This document shows, piece by piece, positions 1-51,280 of a DNA stretch of 64,000 nt. The first letter of the stretch is position 1. Each line of letters begins with the position of its first letter. The stretch comes from Escherichia phage mogra. The translations under genes were made by a program, and so were the position numbers. The DNA lies in sequence record MN850579.1. One strand, written 5' to 3'. Under the pieces are notes generated by a model that searched no databases, was not told the DNA's origin, and was given only the letters and a program-made list of their open reading frames with translations.

Positions 1-224
1 GGAACACTGGTGGATTCACAGACCAATGGCAGGACTTACGGTATACCCAAGCCTTTGCATCCATCGCATCATTTTGTACTGTAGTCTATTTTTACTACGA
101 TTTTATAAACCATAACAAGAAAAATAAAAAGATTTACGCTTCTCAAATGATTAGTTATAATGAACTTCTAGCTAAACGTGAAAATGAAACAATCGAAAAC
201 TTTATTAAGGAATGTAGAAAATGA
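1..224 (+). CDS. hypothetical protein, C-terminal part (5' end outside window)
   Basis: Open frame enters the window; stop TGA 222-224 overlaps next ATG (ATGA); tail ...ENFIKECRK resembles tail of the 2374..2679 product. Confidence 0.4.
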   Translation, partial: NTGGFTDQWQDLRYTQAFASIASFCTVVYFYYDFINHNKKNKKIYASQMISYNELLAKRENETIENFIKECRK

Positions 225-526
225 GTAAGATTATTGAAATTAAAGTACCAGAGTTTAATGATGCCAAATCCGCTTCAGATGCAATTTATAAACTTCTGAA
301 TCAAGCTGAACGTATCGAAGAAGAAGCAACAAAGATCGCAGACCAATATGCCGTGTCATTTTCTGTAGGTGATTATGGTAGCGGTCGTACTTATTATCCT
401 AAGGGTGAAATCGTATCCCAGTGGATGAAAGATGAAATTGAAAATAATGGTGGCGATGTTAAGCGTGAAGGTAATGGTTACGTTATTACTGAAGGTGCTT
501 GGGTTTCGTCTTCTGCGTTGTGCTAA
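221..526 (+). CDS. small hypothetical protein, GWVxSSxxC-tail family member 1
   Basis: 101 aa; C-terminus ...GAWVSSSALC shared with the next two ORFs. Confidence 0.55.
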   Translation: MSKIIEIKVPEFNDAKSASDAIYKLLNQAERIEEEATKIADQYAVSFSVGDYGSGRTYYPKGEIVSQWMKDEIENNGGDVKREGNGYVITEGAWVSSSALC

Positions 527-535
527 GGAATCATT

Positions 536-808
536 ATGTCTAAAGAACAAACCGAACTGGCTGAAGCTGTAGCAAAAATCTATGCAGCTATTGAGGCTGC
601 CAAAGAAATTGCTGATAAACAAAACACAACATTCAACTTGTACCCAGCTTATGGTATGGGTGGAACCTATCATTCACCCAGACATCTTAAAGCCGATCTT
701 GAACGTTGTACAAAAAACGGCTATGCTGAATGGGCTGACGTTTACCAATACGACTACAACCTGAGCCTCGAAACCGGTGGTTGGGTTGCATCTTCTCACA
801 CTTGCTAA
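536..808 (+). CDS. small hypothetical protein, GWVxSSxxC-tail family member 2
   Basis: 90 aa; AAGGAA RBS; C-terminus ...GGWVASSHTC. Confidence 0.55.
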   Translation: MSKEQTELAEAVAKIYAAIEAAKEIADKQNTTFNLYPAYGMGGTYHSPRHLKADLERCTKNGYAEWADVYQYDYNLSLETGGWVASSHTC

Positions 809-817
809 GGAAACAAT

Positions 818-1015
818 ATGTCTCGTGAATTAGATTGTGCTGTACGTACGGCAGTAGCTGCTCTGGAAAACCTGTTCCAAATTGCAACAGAAGAACGCGA
901 AGAAGTTACATTATGGATTGAAGATAACGCAGGTCTGAATCTCCAGGACGCGATCTCATTATCCCACAATAGTATCACTGTTCAAGGCTGGGTATCATCT
1001 AGTTATTCTTGCTAA
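818..1015 (+). CDS. small hypothetical protein, GWVxSSxxC-tail family member 3
   Basis: 65 aa; AAGGAA RBS; C-terminus ...QGWVSSSYSC. Confidence 0.5.
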   Translation: MSRELDCAVRTAVAALENLFQIATEEREEVTLWIEDNAGLNLQDAISLSHNSITVQGWVSSSYSC

Positions 1016-1019
1016 AACA

Positions 1020-1056
1020 GTTTACAACAAGATAGGGCTATGTTATAGTAGTCCTA
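1020..1056 (+). promoter_or_regulatory. early-type promoter (GTTTAC -35, TATAGT -10) with inverted repeat TAGGGCTA / TAGTCCTA bracketing the -10
   Basis: GTTTAC 1020-1025, TATAGT 1044-1049, arms 1033-1040 and 1049-1056; same module recurs at 2316, 13276, 51222. Confidence 0.5.
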
Positions 1057-1078
1057 TCAAAAACAAATGGAGTCCACA

Positions 1079-1318
1079 ATGATTTATTACGAAAGTATCG
1101 GAACCAAAGTGGTTGGTAAAACCATTACTCGTGAAAAGTTTGCAAAGATATTCGATATGCGTTATAAAAAATCTGAACACAAAGGCATCCGATTCGAAGA
1201 TGCGCACTGTACAATTTGCCCTTATAATGAAGACATAAACGGTACAATCGTTCCATTGGTAGAGGCTTCACACGATGACCTCTGGGACGAATATAATATC
1301 GCATGTCGTGAAATTTAA
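1079..1318 (+). CDS. hypothetical protein
   Basis: ATG 1079 six nt after GGAG; track start 1067 lies in the leader; 79 aa. Confidence 0.5.
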   Translation: MIYYESIGTKVVGKTITREKFAKIFDMRYKKSEHKGIRFEDAHCTICPYNEDINGTIVPLVEASHDDLWDEYNIACREI

Positions 1319-1346
1319 GTTAATGAATTAATCCGAGGAAAATATT

Positions 1347-2303
1347 ATGATGTTAGTTATTGGTTCTCGTGCACTTCACTATCACGGTCTTATTGATTCT
1401 AGCGCTATCAAAAATAGCGATTGGGACTTTATTGCGGACCAAGGTTCTTGGAATGCATTCAAAAATCAAATGATGGGTGTATATGTTCACCAAGATAACC
1501 CTGATGTCCAAGTTTTCAAATGCTTCCATAATGGACGCGAAACTCATTTTGAAGCATATATTGTTCCGGCAATCACTAATGTCCGTGAATTAGTCGGTGA
1601 ACTCACTCCTGAAGATTTCACGTCTTCTTATGACCTTTTAAAATACGCCAAGAAAAATTTGACTAAAGACCGTTTGAACGGGTTTTACTGGGCAACTCCT
1701 GAGATATGTCTTGCAATTAAGATGTCTCATCGTTTCAAGAAAAATAATCCATTCTTTTTAAAGACTATGAACCATATTCAGTATCTTCGTGGTAAAGGTG
1801 TTACACTGAACGATGAACTTACTGAAATTATGCTGAAACGCCAGAAAGAAACCTTGAACTATGCTCACCCGGTTCTTGACACTTCTAAAAGTGCGTTCTT
1901 TAAAGATGACATCTATACATATGACCATGATACTATTCATGAAGCCATTGCACTAACAGACCGTCCGGCTTATACATTTTATATGAAAGACGGTTCTGAA
2001 GTCATGACCTCACGCGAGAAGTTCGAATCGTTACCAGAAATGGTCAAATTGGCCGGTGTATATGAAGAATCATGTGTACTAGCATTAGAACGTTCTCAGA
2101 TTCCTAATGACTTTAAAATTAACCCTGAAGCCAGTTTCATGATGGCATTAGAAAAAGTCTGCACAAGCATCACCTCCGGTTGGTTCCGTGAATACGCCTG
2201 GGAAAACTACAGCAAAGTAGTAAGTATGTACCAAAGCTTAGGACATAACGATTACGTCAAACGTTTCAAACAAAATTTCCATATGGTAAAACCTTTCAAA
2301 TAA
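1347..2303 (+). CDS. hypothetical protein (318 aa)
   Basis: Long uninterrupted ORF with AGGAAA RBS; no motif recognised. Confidence 0.6.
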   Translation: MMLVIGSRALHYHGLIDSSAIKNSDWDFIADQGSWNAFKNQMMGVYVHQDNPDVQVFKCFHNGRETHFEAYIVPAITNVRELVGELTPEDFTSSYDLLKYAKKNLTKDRLNGFYWATPEICLAIKMSHRFKKNNPFFLKTMNHIQYLRGKGVTLNDELTEIMLKRQKETLNYAHPVLDTSKSAFFKDDIYTYDHDTIHEAIALTDRPAYTFYMKDGSEVMTSREKFESLPEMVKLAGVYEESCVLALERSQIPNDFKINPEASFMMALEKVCTSITSGWFREYAWENYSKVVSMYQSLGHNDYVKRFKQNFHMVKPFK

Positions 2304-2315
2304 TTTCGCAAAACT

Positions 2316-2352
2316 GTTTACACAATTATAGGACTATGTTATAGTAGTCCTA
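2316..2352 (+). promoter_or_regulatory. early-type promoter with palindromic -10 region (TAGGACTA N8 TAGTCCTA)
   Basis: GTTTAC 2316-2321; TATAGT 2340-2345; perfect 8-bp inverted arms 2329-2336 / 2345-2352. Confidence 0.55.
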
Positions 2353-2373
2353 CCAAAACATGAGGAGAATATT

Positions 2374-2679
2374 ATGAAATTAGGCGAAACCAACCGAATT
2401 GGTCTTTTAACAATATTTGCATCACTTTTTTACGCAACTCTTTCTGTTGCAGTATTACAAAAGGCTTACAGTATGGATGGTGTGCCTGGTTGTATATTCT
2501 TATCACCGTTTTTATTATTCGTCGGAGCTTTGTTATTATATGCCACGACTAGTTTCGACCATAATGTCTGGGTCAATTATAAACGTAAATTGACCGAAGA
2601 AGAACACGCAGAAGCTCGTAAAAAAGCTATTGAATCTACCAATCTAGAAAATTTCATTAAAGAATGTCGAGGAAAATAA
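2374..2679 (+). CDS. small membrane protein
   Basis: 101 aa, two hydrophobic helices, GAGGAG RBS; tail ...ENFIKECRGK like the ORF ending at 224. Confidence 0.55.
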   Translation: MKLGETNRIGLLTIFASLFYATLSVAVLQKAYSMDGVPGCIFLSPFLLFVGALLLYATTSFDHNVWVNYKRKLTEEEHAEARKKAIESTNLENFIKECRGK

Positions 2680-2680
2680 T

Positions 2681-3367
2681 ATGAATAGTTCTAAAGTGTT
2701 TAATAGTCAAGCTCGTGCAATAGGTGGTTTTGCTCATGCGATTAAAAACGACCAGATTAAAAACGAGCCTATGTTCTTTAACTGCGATTTGAATTTTGCT
2801 TTTGATAATGGCGGCCCAATTACTCGTAGCTTTATCCAAAATCTCCCTGACGATTGGAAAGACTCGGATGTAGTATTTGATTCACGAGTCCACATGCTGA
2901 TGCCTGGTTGGTACCCTGCTATTCCTGGATATCACCATGACGATGTTCCACGCCCTGATATTCCAGTTGGTCAACATTTTATTACTGCAGGACAACCTGA
3001 TTATGACAATCCTCGCTATTTGTCTGAACATATTCTTGGTCTTGTTAACGCTGATGTGTGTCCTACTCATTTTGCAACAGGAACTGCAGAGTTCAGTCAG
3101 ATTCCTGATGGCGAACTTATCTATCGCCAGTGGCACAAAGAAGTCCTCGAAAAAATCGAAAAAGGCGAACTAGAGAAATGGGAAGCTCCAGACCGTACTC
3201 TTCTTCAGTTTGATTGGCAAACATGGCACACTGGTTCTCGTGCAATTAGTAATGGATGGCGTTGGTTCGGACGTGTATCTCGTAATACAGACCGAGTTAA
3301 AAAGATTACCAATGAAATTCGTGTCAATGCCCAAGTTTATCTGGAATTCCCTATGGAAGGTTGGTAA
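2681..3367 (+). CDS. hypothetical protein (228 aa)
   Basis: ORF immediately after upstream stop (TAATATG); no motif recognised. Confidence 0.6.
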   Translation: MNSSKVFNSQARAIGGFAHAIKNDQIKNEPMFFNCDLNFAFDNGGPITRSFIQNLPDDWKDSDVVFDSRVHMLMPGWYPAIPGYHHDDVPRPDIPVGQHFITAGQPDYDNPRYLSEHILGLVNADVCPTHFATGTAEFSQIPDGELIYRQWHKEVLEKIEKGELEKWEAPDRTLLQFDWQTWHTGSRAISNGWRWFGRVSRNTDRVKKITNEIRVNAQVYLEFPMEGW

Positions 3368-3858
3368 TGATTAACAAAACATATTGGTCTAATATAGACG
3401 ATGGCAACGAAGGTATTTCGTATTATTCGGTAGATTGGACAGGATGTCCATCCTACTTAGTGAAACATATTTGCCAAGAATTTAAAATCTACCAGCCAGC
3501 AGGTATTATTGTGAACAGATACATTAATGGATATCAACCTATCGATGAAGTAATACGAACAACTCAAGCTGAGCTTGAAAAGTTTTTCAATAAGTGCCAA
3601 TGGATAACAGGATGGATTATATTTGTACCGTCTATATGGTTTTTTAGTACTAAAGTAAGTGCCTTTGCTGTACTAGATATTATCGCTATCTTATTAGCAT
3701 CTACTATCGTAAGTATTATTGGTGGTATTATTGGTGGAGGTATTGTAGGCATCATTATTAATCTTATTAAAAGTAGTTTACAAGAACATAAAGACAAGAT
3801 AAAAGCCAAGAATAATGAAGTTGAACGTTTTATTACCGAATGCAGGAATTTGAGATGA
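3367..3858 (+). CDS. membrane protein with glycine-zipper helix
   Basis: ATG 3367 overlaps upstream stop (TAATG); hydrophobic segment ...SIIGGIIGGGIVGIIINLI... Confidence 0.5.
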   Translation: MINKTYWSNIDDGNEGISYYSVDWTGCPSYLVKHICQEFKIYQPAGIIVNRYINGYQPIDEVIRTTQAELEKFFNKCQWITGWIIFVPSIWFFSTKVSAFAVLDIIAILLASTIVSIIGGIIGGGIVGIIINLIKSSLQEHKDKIKAKNNEVERFITECRNLR

Positions 3859-4091
3859 GTATAGCAATTTACATTAAATCAGAATCATGTGATAGTTATC
3901 TGTACACATACGATAAAGATGTGTCAGAAGAAAAAATCAAAGACGATCTTAATATGGACCTTGATATGTTCTGTCCTATTGCAGATTACAAACTTGCGGT
4001 CTCTAATAGTGAAAGTCCATCTAAAGAAACGCGCATCGAAGAATTTATGTCCGAATTAATGGCCAAATCATGGGACCGAGATGATGAGTAA
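3855..4091 (+). CDS. hypothetical acidic protein
   Basis: ATG 3855 overlaps upstream stop (ATGA); 78 aa. Confidence 0.45.
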   Translation: MSIAIYIKSESCDSYLYTYDKDVSEEKIKDDLNMDLDMFCPIADYKLAVSNSESPSKETRIEEFMSELMAKSWDRDDE

Positions 4092-4539
4092 GAAAAATAA
4101 AGTGAAAGAACTATCAGCCGGTATTATTTTCCTTACCGAAGATAAAGAATTATTCATGGGGCGTGTAACTGGTTCTTGTCCTAAAGGTTCTTTAGCTCAT
4201 AGGTGGGATATTCCTAAAGGCCGTGTCGAACCTGGCGAATCTTCTATTGAAGCCGCTATTCGTGAATGCGAAGAAGAAACTGGGTTTACACAATATGACC
4301 CTGCCTTCCTGAAAGACCTAGGTGAACATCGTTACTCAGACAATAAGAATATTCATCTGTTCCTATATGCCATCCCTGTAGAGCACGAGCAATTCAGAAA
4401 CAGTGTTTGTAATTCCTATCATACATTCCCAGACGGACGACAGATTCCTGAATTTGATGCATTCGCTTTAATTAAACCTTCTCAATGGGAATATGTGATG
4501 GGCAAATCATTATATAAGGTGCTCACTACCCTCCTATAA
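4081..4539 (+). CDS. nudE: Nudix hydrolase
   Basis: Nudix box GRVEPGESSIEAAIRECEEETGF; sits immediately upstream of lysozyme as T4 nudE (e.1) does. Confidence 0.85.
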   Translation: MMSKKNKVKELSAGIIFLTEDKELFMGRVTGSCPKGSLAHRWDIPKGRVEPGESSIEAAIRECEEETGFTQYDPAFLKDLGEHRYSDNKNIHLFLYAIPVEHEQFRNSVCNSYHTFPDGRQIPEFDAFALIKPSQWEYVMGKSLYKVLTTLL

Positions 4540-4573: not shown

Positions 4574-5062
4574 ATGAATATATTTGAAATGCTTCGTAAT
4601 GACGAAGGTCTTAGACTGACTTTATACAAAGACACTGAAGGCTTTTGGACGATTGGCATAGGCCATTTAGTAACAAAGAACCCGTCTTTAGCCGTAGCTA
4701 AAGCTGAACTTGACAGAATGATCGGTCGTAAATGCAACGGTACAATTACCCTTGATGAGGCTGAAAAGCTATTTAATGAAGACGTTGATAAAGCCGTTCG
4801 CGGAATCTTGGGTAATGCTAAACTTAAACCGGTGTATGATTCTTTAGACGCGGTTCGTCGATGTGCATTGGTCAATATGGTCTTCCAAATGGGTGTAGCA
4901 GGCGTCGCTGGTTTTACTAATTCTCTTCGTATGCTTCAACAGAAACGTTGGGACGAAGCGGCAGTAAATCTAGCCCAATCTAAATGGTATCGTCAGACAC
5001 CTAATCGCGCGAAACGCGTAATCTCAACATTTAAAACAGGAACTTGGAAAGCGTATATATGA
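4574..5062 (+). CDS. e: lysozyme (endolysin, T4 e type)
   Basis: [31 protein letters not shown]... near-identical to recalled T4 lysozyme N-terminus with catalytic Glu11/Asp20 context; 162 aa. Confidence 0.95.
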
Positions 5063-5340
5063 AAACATACAATGAATTTTTATCAGAATCTATTCTTAAC
5101 GAAGCTACTGACACATTTGCAACTAAGCTAGGTGCAGCTTTGGTTGAAGCCGAAAGTCTATTAGCACGTATTTCTGAACTTGCTAGTAAGATAGATACTC
5201 GCAAATTTGAACGTACCAGCGATATCGTTAAGCTCGAAGCCTTGTTGCGTATGTGCGATAAACCGGAAGAAATCGCTAAGAACGGCTCGCTGATGAAACA
5301 ACGTCTTGAAAAATATATTTCAGGCGCTTCAGAAAAATAG
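5059..5340 (+). CDS. internal-protein-like protein with capsid targeting sequence
   Basis: ATG 5059 overlaps lysozyme stop (ATGA); N-terminus [10 protein letters not shown] matches the T4 internal-protein CTS MKTYQEFIAE. Confidence 0.6.
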
Positions 5341-5818: not shown

Positions 5819-6079
5819 ATGAAAATGTATCAAGAATTTATCGCTGAAGCAGATGCCAAAGGTCCTAAATTTAAAGTTAAAGCTTTCATTGGTGATGCCG
5901 AAGACTTTGGCTCATTAAAACGTAATGGGTATTCTTTCTTAGGTGGCGATGGTAAAGAAATCAACACCTATGCAAAACGTAGTGAAATTGCTTATGTTGT
6001 AGCAAGTCCTAAAGTAGATGTTGACGATATTGGATACGATTTTAACAACTTCGGAATTATTTCTGGCGGTAAAGCTTAA
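5819..6079 (+). CDS. internal-protein-like protein with capsid targeting sequence
   Basis: N-terminus MKMYQEFIAEA; 86 aa. Confidence 0.6.
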   Translation: MKMYQEFIAEADAKGPKFKVKAFIGDAEDFGSLKRNGYSFLGGDGKEINTYAKRSEIAYVVASPKVDVDDIGYDFNNFGIISGGKA

Positions 6080-13276: not shown

Positions 13277-13312
13277 TTTACATCTTGGTAGGACTATGTT
13301 ATAGTAGTCCTA
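13276..13312 (+). promoter_or_regulatory. early-type promoter with palindromic -10 region
   Basis: GTTTAC 13276-13281; arms TAGGACTA 13289-13296 / TAGTCCTA 13305-13312; TATAGT 13300-13305. Confidence 0.55.
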
Positions 13313-51221: not shown

Positions 51222-51256
51222 GTTTACATTATAGATGGACTATAGTATAGTAGTCC
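51222..51256 (+). promoter_or_regulatory. early-type promoter with palindromic -10 region
   Basis: GTTTAC 51222-51227; arms GGACTA 51237-51242 / TAGTCC 51251-51256; TATAGT 51246-51251. Confidence 0.5.
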
Positions 51257-51280
51257 TATCAAATCAACTAAGGAGTTAAA

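Follow-up and report, generated by a model that had tools for sequence, protein, structure and literature searches.

The MenT-like nucleotidyltransferases (NTases) known to date are bacterial toxins and abortive-infection effectors, and precedents for the modification of a partner protein are provided by MntA, which AMPylates HepT, and GlnD, which uridylylates PII. The partner of MenT1 is MenA1, a protein of 68 amino acids (aa) that is encoded upstream of MenT1 and of which a 32-residue helix is enough for inhibition (PMC10435456). Large and jumbo phages encode RlaP, an RNA-ligase-associated Pol-beta NTase (PF10127; family defined in PMC12776372), which is predicted to act on RNA ends (PMC7824862, PMC12776372). 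Considered here is a triplet of small open reading frames (ORFs) in a stretch of 64,000 nucleotides from Escherichia phage mogra (sequence record MN850579.1). This whole stretch is referred to as the window, and positions given without another source are positions in it. The triplet is best explained as one local instance of a two-part module specific to phages, made up of one to six acidic paralogous proteins, which typically end in a Cys-terminated tail, and one NTase.

The small-protein family and its C-terminal tail

The array consists of the following genes and tail segments:

221-526, + strand: ORF1, 101 aa, ending GAWVSSSALC, GDYGSGRTYYP type; equals RB69ORF139c plus RB69ORF138c, intact here
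500-523, + strand: C-terminal tail of ORF1, W94-V-S-S-S-A-L-C101
536-808, + strand: ORF2, 90 aa, ending GGWVASSHTC, AYGMGGTY type; equals RB69ORF137c
782-805, + strand: C-terminal tail of ORF2, W83-V-A-S-S-H-T-C90
818-1015, + strand: ORF3, 65 aa, ending QGWVSSSYSC, a degenerate copy that retains helix and tail and has lost the YG.GG loop; equals RB69ORF136c
989-1012, + strand: C-terminal tail of ORF3, W58-V-S-S-S-Y-S-C65

Coordinates and sequence confirm what had been read in the original prediction, namely three consecutive ORFs (101, 90, and 65 aa), each with its own AAGGAA and a WVxSSxxC-type end. In six-frame translation of the whole 64-kb window the tail pattern is confined to these three termini.

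The N-terminal parts had been described as diverging, and mutual identity is indeed only 22-33%, yet the proteins are homologous along their length. Pairwise BLASTP gives E values of 3e-4 to 2e-3. ORF1 and ORF2 match the C-terminal part of the profile phrog_899 (E 1.3e-22 and 2.4e-18, respectively) and ORF3 matches phrog_4882 (E 7.7e-37), both listed as function unknown. When ORF3 orthologues were combined into a profile, it could be aligned with that of the family over 61 columns, from helix to tail (hhalign probability 79.5%, E 1.5e-5), and this profile-profile comparison joins phrog_899 and phrog_4882. An N-terminal helix is common to ORF1, ORF2, and ORF3, and all three carry the helix and the terminal W-x-x-S-S-x-x-C by which the family is defined. 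As judged from these alignments, ORF1-3 are ancient full-length paralogues of one helix-plus-tail family, and not a set of unrelated effector bodies with a common tag, as had been supposed. Each of the three copies has orthologues in Mosigvirus, Dhakavirus, and the T4-like phages of Klebsiella, Enterobacter, and Pectobacterium; the duplications are therefore old.

A word-indexed search yielded 58 relatives. The profile search called for in the original prediction, run exhaustively with the family profile against 1.84 billion representatives, gave 715 cluster representatives at E<=1e-3, nearly all of whose matches extend to the last residue of the hit. A typical member has 60-120 aa, with a median of 90 aa among 425 unique members, and begins with a long amphipathic helix (...A..I..L...A...I.EAE.IADE.G), followed by a strand (F.F), a YG(M/S)GG-TYYP loop that is usual but not universal, a linker rich in acidic, aromatic, and Ser residues, and a C-terminal G-x-W-x-S-S-x-x-C. 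Later copies in an array often lack the YG.GG loop and retain helix and tail. Net charge is negative in 97.6% of the 425 unique members (median -8), and the median number of Cys per member is one, at the last position. An AlphaFold2 (AF2) model of ORF1, with a predicted local distance difference test score (pLDDT) of 91.8, consists of a helix (residues 15-43), a small beta unit, and the tail.

Scans of ORF1-3 and ten distant members against Pfam, NCBIfam, and PADLOC gave no credible match; the N-terminal extensions of nine long members likewise showed no credible domain match, and sequence and profile searches of the PDB with the tail family returned just generic helix matches to designed proteins. 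By these searches the tail family has no known fold and no Pfam model. One sub-branch (locus L126, positions 1906-2322, with equivalents in L017, L089, L094, and L095) comprises proteins of 138-200 aa that match the family hidden Markov model (HMM) and end in ...SGGCEWEESA..YGW(D/N)(L/V); their terminal Cys is gone and an internal Cys is present instead.

The general form of the tail is W-x-[S/A/P]-S-S-x-x-Cys-COOH. Cys is the exact last residue in 402 of the 425 unique members (95%), W occupies position -7 in 91%, and S occupies positions -4 (94%) and -3 (91%), while positions -6, -5, -2, and -1 are variable; a few members deviate in spacing (SSC, SSxC, or SSxxxC). Among orthologues of ORF1-3, the W, S, S, and C residues are invariant even though synonymous sites are near saturation (synonymous divergence, pS, 0.69-0.75). 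Non-synonymous divergence (pN) over the last eight codons is 0.20, 0.28, and 0.24 for ORF1, ORF2, and ORF3, against 0.41, 0.35, and 0.27 for the body. These comparisons support the Cys-terminated tail as the most constrained part of the proteins. To that extent the suggested role as a shared interaction or modification element on variable bodies is borne out: the tail has been kept on fast-diverging paralogues. The bodies themselves had been thought to be diversifying, and here the data differ, since pN/pS in the body is 0.5-0.6, which points to purifying selection that has been relaxed and does not demonstrate diversifying selection.

Alternatively, the tail might have no function and be left over from a recent duplication at the locus, or result at the DNA level from the TGC-TAA-GGAA junction at which a stop codon runs into the next ribosome-binding site, and the junction TGCTAAGGAA is in fact identical after ORF1 and after ORF2. 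The paralogues are too divergent for this, at 22-33% identity and with orthologues of each in several genera, and hundreds of distant relatives, whose downstream sequence differs, have retained the tail, with Cys as the last residue in 95%. Equal divergence along the length, the pattern named in the original prediction for an unconstrained recent duplication, is not seen either: the tail diverges less than the body at non-synonymous sites despite synonymous saturation. The profile search, the frequency of terminal Cys, and the comparison of tail and body pN together refute this explanation, which retains practically no probability.

The linked enzyme gene and the layout of the locus

The tail family was used to fetch 35 viral contigs of 7-389 kb, jumbo phages included, and tail genes form tandem arrays in them. 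When neighbouring ORFs were clustered, a single other family emerged, with members of about 313-315 aa, in 37 of 39 loci. This family is homologous to the following gene of the window, which starts 332 bp downstream of ORF3 and is co-directional with it:

1347-2303, + strand: 318-aa nucleotidyltransferase-like protein, RB69ORF134c; DUF7277 at residues 2-101 and DUF7275 at residues 120-305
1419-1427, + strand: codons for D25-W26-D27, predicted metal-binding carboxylates of the nucleotidyltransferase, from conservation in homologues

Starting from the tail proteins, the DUF7275 gene lies downstream on the same strand in 36 of 38 loci, at a gap of 9-1372 bp. The reverse test, which started from the 318-aa protein, found one to five co-directional tail ORFs in the 4 kb preceding the enzyme gene in 72 of 80 loci; the tail pattern was absent from the other ORFs of those 80 loci (4172 ORFs, on either strand or downstream), and HMM searches added two loci with variant tails (...WDSSTC and ...WDGSSC). 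After dereplication by enzyme identity (<70%) there were 50 lineages, of which 46, among them T4-like, rV5-like, Otagovirus, and jumbo phages, have tail genes. Lineages carry one copy (17), two (14), three (8), four (3), five (2), or six (2), and 279 copies lie upstream of the enzyme gene against 3 downstream. Stenotrophomonas phage YB07 (4207-4745), a cultured phage unrelated to T4, provides one of the three downstream cases. The linkage is also found in other cultured phages unrelated to T4, namely ESCO5 (Phapecoctavirus; three copies) and Pseudomonas phage PN09 (Otagovirus), in which at least five tail copies accompany the enzyme gene. The original prediction looked to the host for partners; no data indicate one, and the sole partner that is indicated is this phage-encoded DUF7277-DUF7275 gene, which lies outside the triplet.

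No third family is conserved among the 50 lineages, the next real one being a DnaB-like helicase in 8 of 50. Two apparent extra families in the first neighbourhood clustering proved to be antisense shadow ORFs inside the enzyme gene. Such ORFs (1758-1940, - strand, and equivalents elsewhere) are conserved through the strong conservation of the sense strand and mimic additional gene families in clustering, which makes them a trap for neighbourhood analyses. The enzyme gene is present in 721 deposited phage genomes and in just 6 contigs, all from metagenome-assembled genomes (MAGs), among 185,579 bacterial and archaeal species (one genome each), and the module is therefore viral.

The 318-aa protein scores 97.2 bits for DUF7277 and 265.8 bits for DUF7275 in Pfam (cut-off 27 each), and its homologues fall into 2211 clusters. 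The Pol-beta signature (G6-S7, D25-x-D27, and E69) is invariant in 38 homologues and retained in 209-217 of 219 unique homologues (D25 in 215, D27 in 217); selection has therefore kept the protein an active enzyme. The helical C-terminal domain (DUF7275, about 190 aa) is far more conserved than the N-terminal domain, with invariant K125, H128, K139, R165, H194, D195, H198, E240, E241, E248, R249, K270, and R281. The alpha-beta-alpha-beta-alpha-beta core of the NTase fold is present, and the predicted structure is nearest to the MenT tRNA-modifying toxins and to ANT(2'')/LnuA. By predicted fold and catalytic signature, the protein is a catalytically intact Pol-beta-type NTase of the MenT/ANT(2'')/LnuA structural clade.

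Single-sequence and profile searches of the PDB sequences gave no match for the enzyme. Pfam AbiEii/DUF1814 matched none of the 38 homologues at E<=5, and there was no PADLOC match. Identity with RlaP was rejected, as RlaP belongs to a different Pfam family and PF10127 is unmatched by all 38 homologues. A zinc site formed by C243 and C272 was considered and weakened by the finding of Tyr at position 243 in 24 of 219 homologues, including that of YB07, which has tail genes; actinophage homologues, which lack both Cys residues, weaken it further. A role in RB69 DNA hypermodification was also rejected, as a paper on the arabinosyl- and hydroxy-cytosine pathways of RB69 does not include these genes. 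The actinophage homologues of DUF7275, in Streptomyces phage Beuffert (2878-3633) and Gordonia phage Bachita (2809-3600), have about 250-260 aa; they retain GS...DxD and the His/Asp/Glu invariants and lack the middle of the NTase domain. An RNA ligase gene is located at a distance of 1 kb from one of the two, and a tRNA cluster 1.2 kb away from the other.

The source phage is an RB69-like, T4-type Mosigvirus, with 99.1% identity over 2.4 kb to Escherichia phage vB_Eco_F27 and 97.8% to RB69. The array is located in the interval from e.3 to e.2, and nudE, e (lysozyme), and denV follow downstream; the RB69 versions of its genes (RB69ORF139c/138c, 137c, and 136c) are each annotated merely as hypothetical. 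The window contains no tRNA genes. Expression signals and the remaining gene between array and enzyme gene are as follows:

133-161, + strand: candidate promoter for ORF1-3 in the end of e.3, TTTACG-17-TATAAT, sigma-70/T4-early-like, predicted by consensus scan (10/12 matches)
207-212, + strand: AAGGAA ribosome-binding site of ORF1, read from the sequence, 8 nt 5' of the ATG at 221
525-530, + strand: AAGGAA ribosome-binding site of ORF2, 5 nt 5' of the ATG, overlapping the ORF1 stop
807-812, + strand: AAGGAA ribosome-binding site of ORF3, 5 nt 5' of the ATG, overlapping the ORF2 stop
1021-1049, + strand: T4-early-like promoter site, TTTACA-17-TATAGT with TG extension, preceding the next two genes and carrying CTATGTTATAGTAGTCCT
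1067-1318, + strand: 83-aa ORF, RB69ORF135c, phrog_3723

The TAA stops of ORF1 and ORF2 merge into the next ribosome-binding site (TGC-TAA-GGAA) and the ATG of ORF1 overlaps the e.3 stop (ATGA), so the genes are tightly packed. ORFs on the opposite strand of the array region have no homologues and are regarded as shadow ORFs. The 83-aa ORF is confined to T4-like relatives and was not recovered as a conserved family in the comparison of lineages; because of this restriction its membership in the module is doubtful.

The 18-nt element CTATGTTATAGTAGTCCT occurs at 1038-1055, 2334-2351, 13294-13311, and 51240-51257 (three exact copies and one with two mismatches; 0.09 expected by chance). Within the scanned region (1-2500) the copies at 1038 and 2334 sit in a T4-early-promoter-like site, TTTACA-17-TATAGT, and the element makes a 7-bp inverted repeat, AGGACTA/TAGTCCT, that flanks the -10 hexamer. 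The predicted T4-early-like promoter sites at 133-161 and 1021-1049 suggest early expression.

Related phages differ in their arrays. In the reference sequence of RB69 (AY303349, 4219-4525, corresponding to 221-526) a single inserted nucleotide, a T that follows GTGG near what is position 424 of the window, breaks the ORF1 orthologue into ORF139c and ORF138c, and a TCT to CCT change replaces Ser by Pro at tail position -4. The broken orthologue is either a pseudogene of the laboratory strain or a sequencing error; the intact 101-aa ORF1 is present in other Mosigviruses. IME08 (NC_014260) has a fourth tail paralogue at 3708-3917, behind three annotated copies (69 aa, ending GFWFSSSMSC). It is itself unannotated, the annotated orf120 (3763-4152) using a different frame. 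A fourth copy, which is absent from the window, is also found in Klebsiella, Enterobacter, and Dhakavirus relatives.

A proposed enzyme with several client proteins

The established parts of the module are the family, its tail and the constraint on that tail, the two-way linkage, the restriction to phages, and the fold and catalytic signature of the enzyme. Sequence and gene order suggest that the enzyme engages the tail, with the helix serving for recognition. The arrangement looks like an enzyme with clients because a single enzyme gene is accompanied by as many as six paralogues in which just helix and tail are retained. In the proposed mechanism, one NTase would engage several diverged paralogues through the helix and the C-terminal tail; a nucleotidyl group (nucleoside monophosphate, NMP) would go onto the hydroxyl of a tail Ser beside the terminal Cys; and the single enzyme would mark or activate several diverged clients early in infection. 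Transfer of NMP to the tail Ser hydroxyl, proposed by analogy, is given a probability of roughly 0.4. It is favoured because the invariant tail residues include two Ser and because the structural clade modifies hydroxyls. The clients would probably serve host takeover or counter-defence, since their genes are predicted to be early, acidic in product, non-core, and located in a hyperplastic region.

Several observations weigh against this proposal. Thr hardly ever substitutes for the two tail Ser, a restriction that a pure hydroxyl-acceptor role does not need, and Ser nucleotidylylation alone does not explain the requirement for a terminal Cys. Enzymes with a structure close to that of the NTase use tRNA or small molecules, and not proteins, as substrates. 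Linkage is also incomplete: one tail locus has no enzyme gene within 8 kb, 4 of the 50 lineages have no detectable tail genes, and none lie near the short actinophage DUF7275 homologues. In the AF2 model of ORF1 the tail is within the fold, as a strand and then a short helix (pLDDT about 92 at residues 91-100 and 78 at Cys101).

An ordered tail would suit an enzyme-independent chemical site, for example a metal or redox centre formed by the terminal Cys in homo- or hetero-oligomers assembled through the helices. The single Cys of the median member is the last residue, and the helices could drive oligomerization. Coupling with the NTase would then be at the level of a pathway without contact, such as decoys combined with RNA-end repair; an RNA-end role of the enzyme is suggested by neighbouring genes, which in one jumbo-phage clade encode polynucleotide kinase and RNA ligase and in the actinophages are the RNA ligase gene and tRNA cluster mentioned above. 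These RNA-repair neighbours are limited to a few related lineages, there is no recognizable metal-binding motif, the tail spacing varies (SSC, SSxC, SSxxC, and SSxxxC), and this reading does not explain why the two kinds of gene, from whichever side the search starts, are nearly always neighbours in phages with unrelated backbones. On balance such a site is improbable.

The main rival reading takes the tail proteins to be non-covalent partners of the NTase (blockers, pseudo-substrates, or specificity subunits), as MenA1 is for MenT1. An acidic body would then mimic the nucleic-acid substrate of the enzyme, and Ser-Ser-x-x-Cys-COOH would occupy the active site, close to the catalytic metals; the acidity of the tail proteins is sufficient for such mimicry. 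MenA1 is likewise small and encoded upstream, and inhibits through a helix alone (PMC10435456). The tail proteins, however, have no sequence or fold similarity to MenA1 or other antitoxins, they number up to six per enzyme, unlike antitoxins, and the module is absent from bacterial genomes, the home of toxin-antitoxin systems. Why a lytic phage should silence an enzyme of its own is not obvious, and in the window array and enzyme gene are apparently under separate promoters, as predicted from the consensus scan. A purely non-covalent partnership is thus a possible but rather doubtful reading.

The terminal Cys would acquire a chemical role in a variant of the proposed enzyme-client mechanism, in which nucleotidylylation of Ser is followed by elimination of NMP to give dehydroalanine, which the Cys thiol attacks to form a lanthionine-like thioether. 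The ring, Ser-x-x-Cys or Ser-x-x-x-Cys, would lie at the C-terminus of folded phage proteins of 60-150 aa. Its sole support is the spacing, S-x-x-C or S-x-x-x-C, which fits, and the variant is a long shot. If true, thioethers would be formed by a new enzymology, and phage effectors stapled after translation by a single enzyme, acting on an array of paralogues, would constitute a new class.

Should the linkage reflect a real enzyme-client system, a widespread undescribed module would be added to phage early-gene biology, with a spread that takes in T4-like phages of Escherichia, Acinetobacter, and Aeromonas, rV5-like phages, Otagovirus, jumbo phages, and hundreds of metagenomic clusters. Two Pfam domains of unknown function (DUFs) and two PHROGs listed as unknown would gain a function, and a new protein modification or a new control of MenT-like NTases could be revealed. 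The broken ORF1 orthologue of RB69, if real and not a sequencing error, would suggest that the genes are dispensable in the laboratory and hence accessible to genetics.

Comparison with known systems

A search of 8 million papers on the ORF names, the DUFs, the PHROG, and the logic of the motif found nothing. Lanthionine rings of classical size have a Ser-(x)2-3-Cys spacing, and the module is like the systems that make ribosomally synthesized and post-translationally modified peptides (RiPPs; for example, prochlorosins) in having one enzyme gene and several paralogous substrate-like genes. In RiPP terms, however, the conserved part of the phage proteins is the putative core and the variable part the would-be leader, and the tail proteins are folded domains of 60-150 aa, not peptides. 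No LanB, LanM, LanKC, LanL, LanC, or radical S-adenosylmethionine homologue was found in the genes scanned (221-3364; Pfam, NCBIfam, and PADLOC), and across loci no lanthipeptide-enzyme family is conserved, the NTase being the only conserved neighbour.

The T4 internal proteins (IPI, IPII, and IPIII) are also tandem, fast-evolving small genes in hyperplastic regions, with a short terminal peptide on divergent bodies. That peptide, an N-terminal MKTYQEFIAE-like sequence, is cut off by the prohead protease and serves packaging. ORF1-3 start with MSKIIEIK, MSKEQTEL, and MSRELDCA and have no such capsid-targeting sequence; the element conserved among them is at the C-terminus, and mutual homology extends to the bodies. 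Two small ORFs that flank denV (5044-5340 and 5819-6079) do resemble the capsid-targeting N-terminus, one from an internal Met and the other with MKMYQEFIAE, and their products are probably IP-like injected proteins.

RlaP is likewise a phage-encoded Pol-beta NTase of large phages, from a different Pfam family, and no tail-protein partners have been described for it. ANT(2'')-Ia and LnuA, which confer resistance by acting on antibiotics, are small enzymes of a single domain and have neither partner proteins nor DUF7275.

By its genes, the module is most like the pairs of an NTase and a small partner, MenAT1, HepT-MntA, and GlnD-PII, yet it lacks the features by which membership in each is recognized. 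MenAT1 of Mycobacterium tuberculosis (MenT1 toxin and MenA1 antitoxin) shows no sequence homology on either side, the likeness being drawn from the genes and predicted structure. The phage enzyme has an additional, extremely conserved DUF7275 domain of about 190 aa; its partners are acidic alpha+beta proteins in arrays of one to six, with an invariant Cys-terminated tail; and the module is found in lytic phages, not bacterial chromosomes. Toxin-antitoxin systems in general reside in bacteria, whereas here 6 MAG loci among 185,579 species stand against 721 phage records. HepT-MntA (a type VII toxin-antitoxin system) and GlnD-PII resemble the module in that a small protein encoded next to the NTase-fold enzyme is covalently modified by it with NMP at a hydroxyl, as is proposed here. 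They modify Tyr in the HEPN toxin or in the PII T-loop, whereas the candidate acceptor in the phage proteins is the Ser-Ser by the terminal Cys, and the tail family is unrelated to HepT and PII, having neither the R-x4-6-H of HEPN nor a PII signature. The module is therefore classified as a so far undescribed NTase with protein partners, which would be categorically new if its chemistry proves new.

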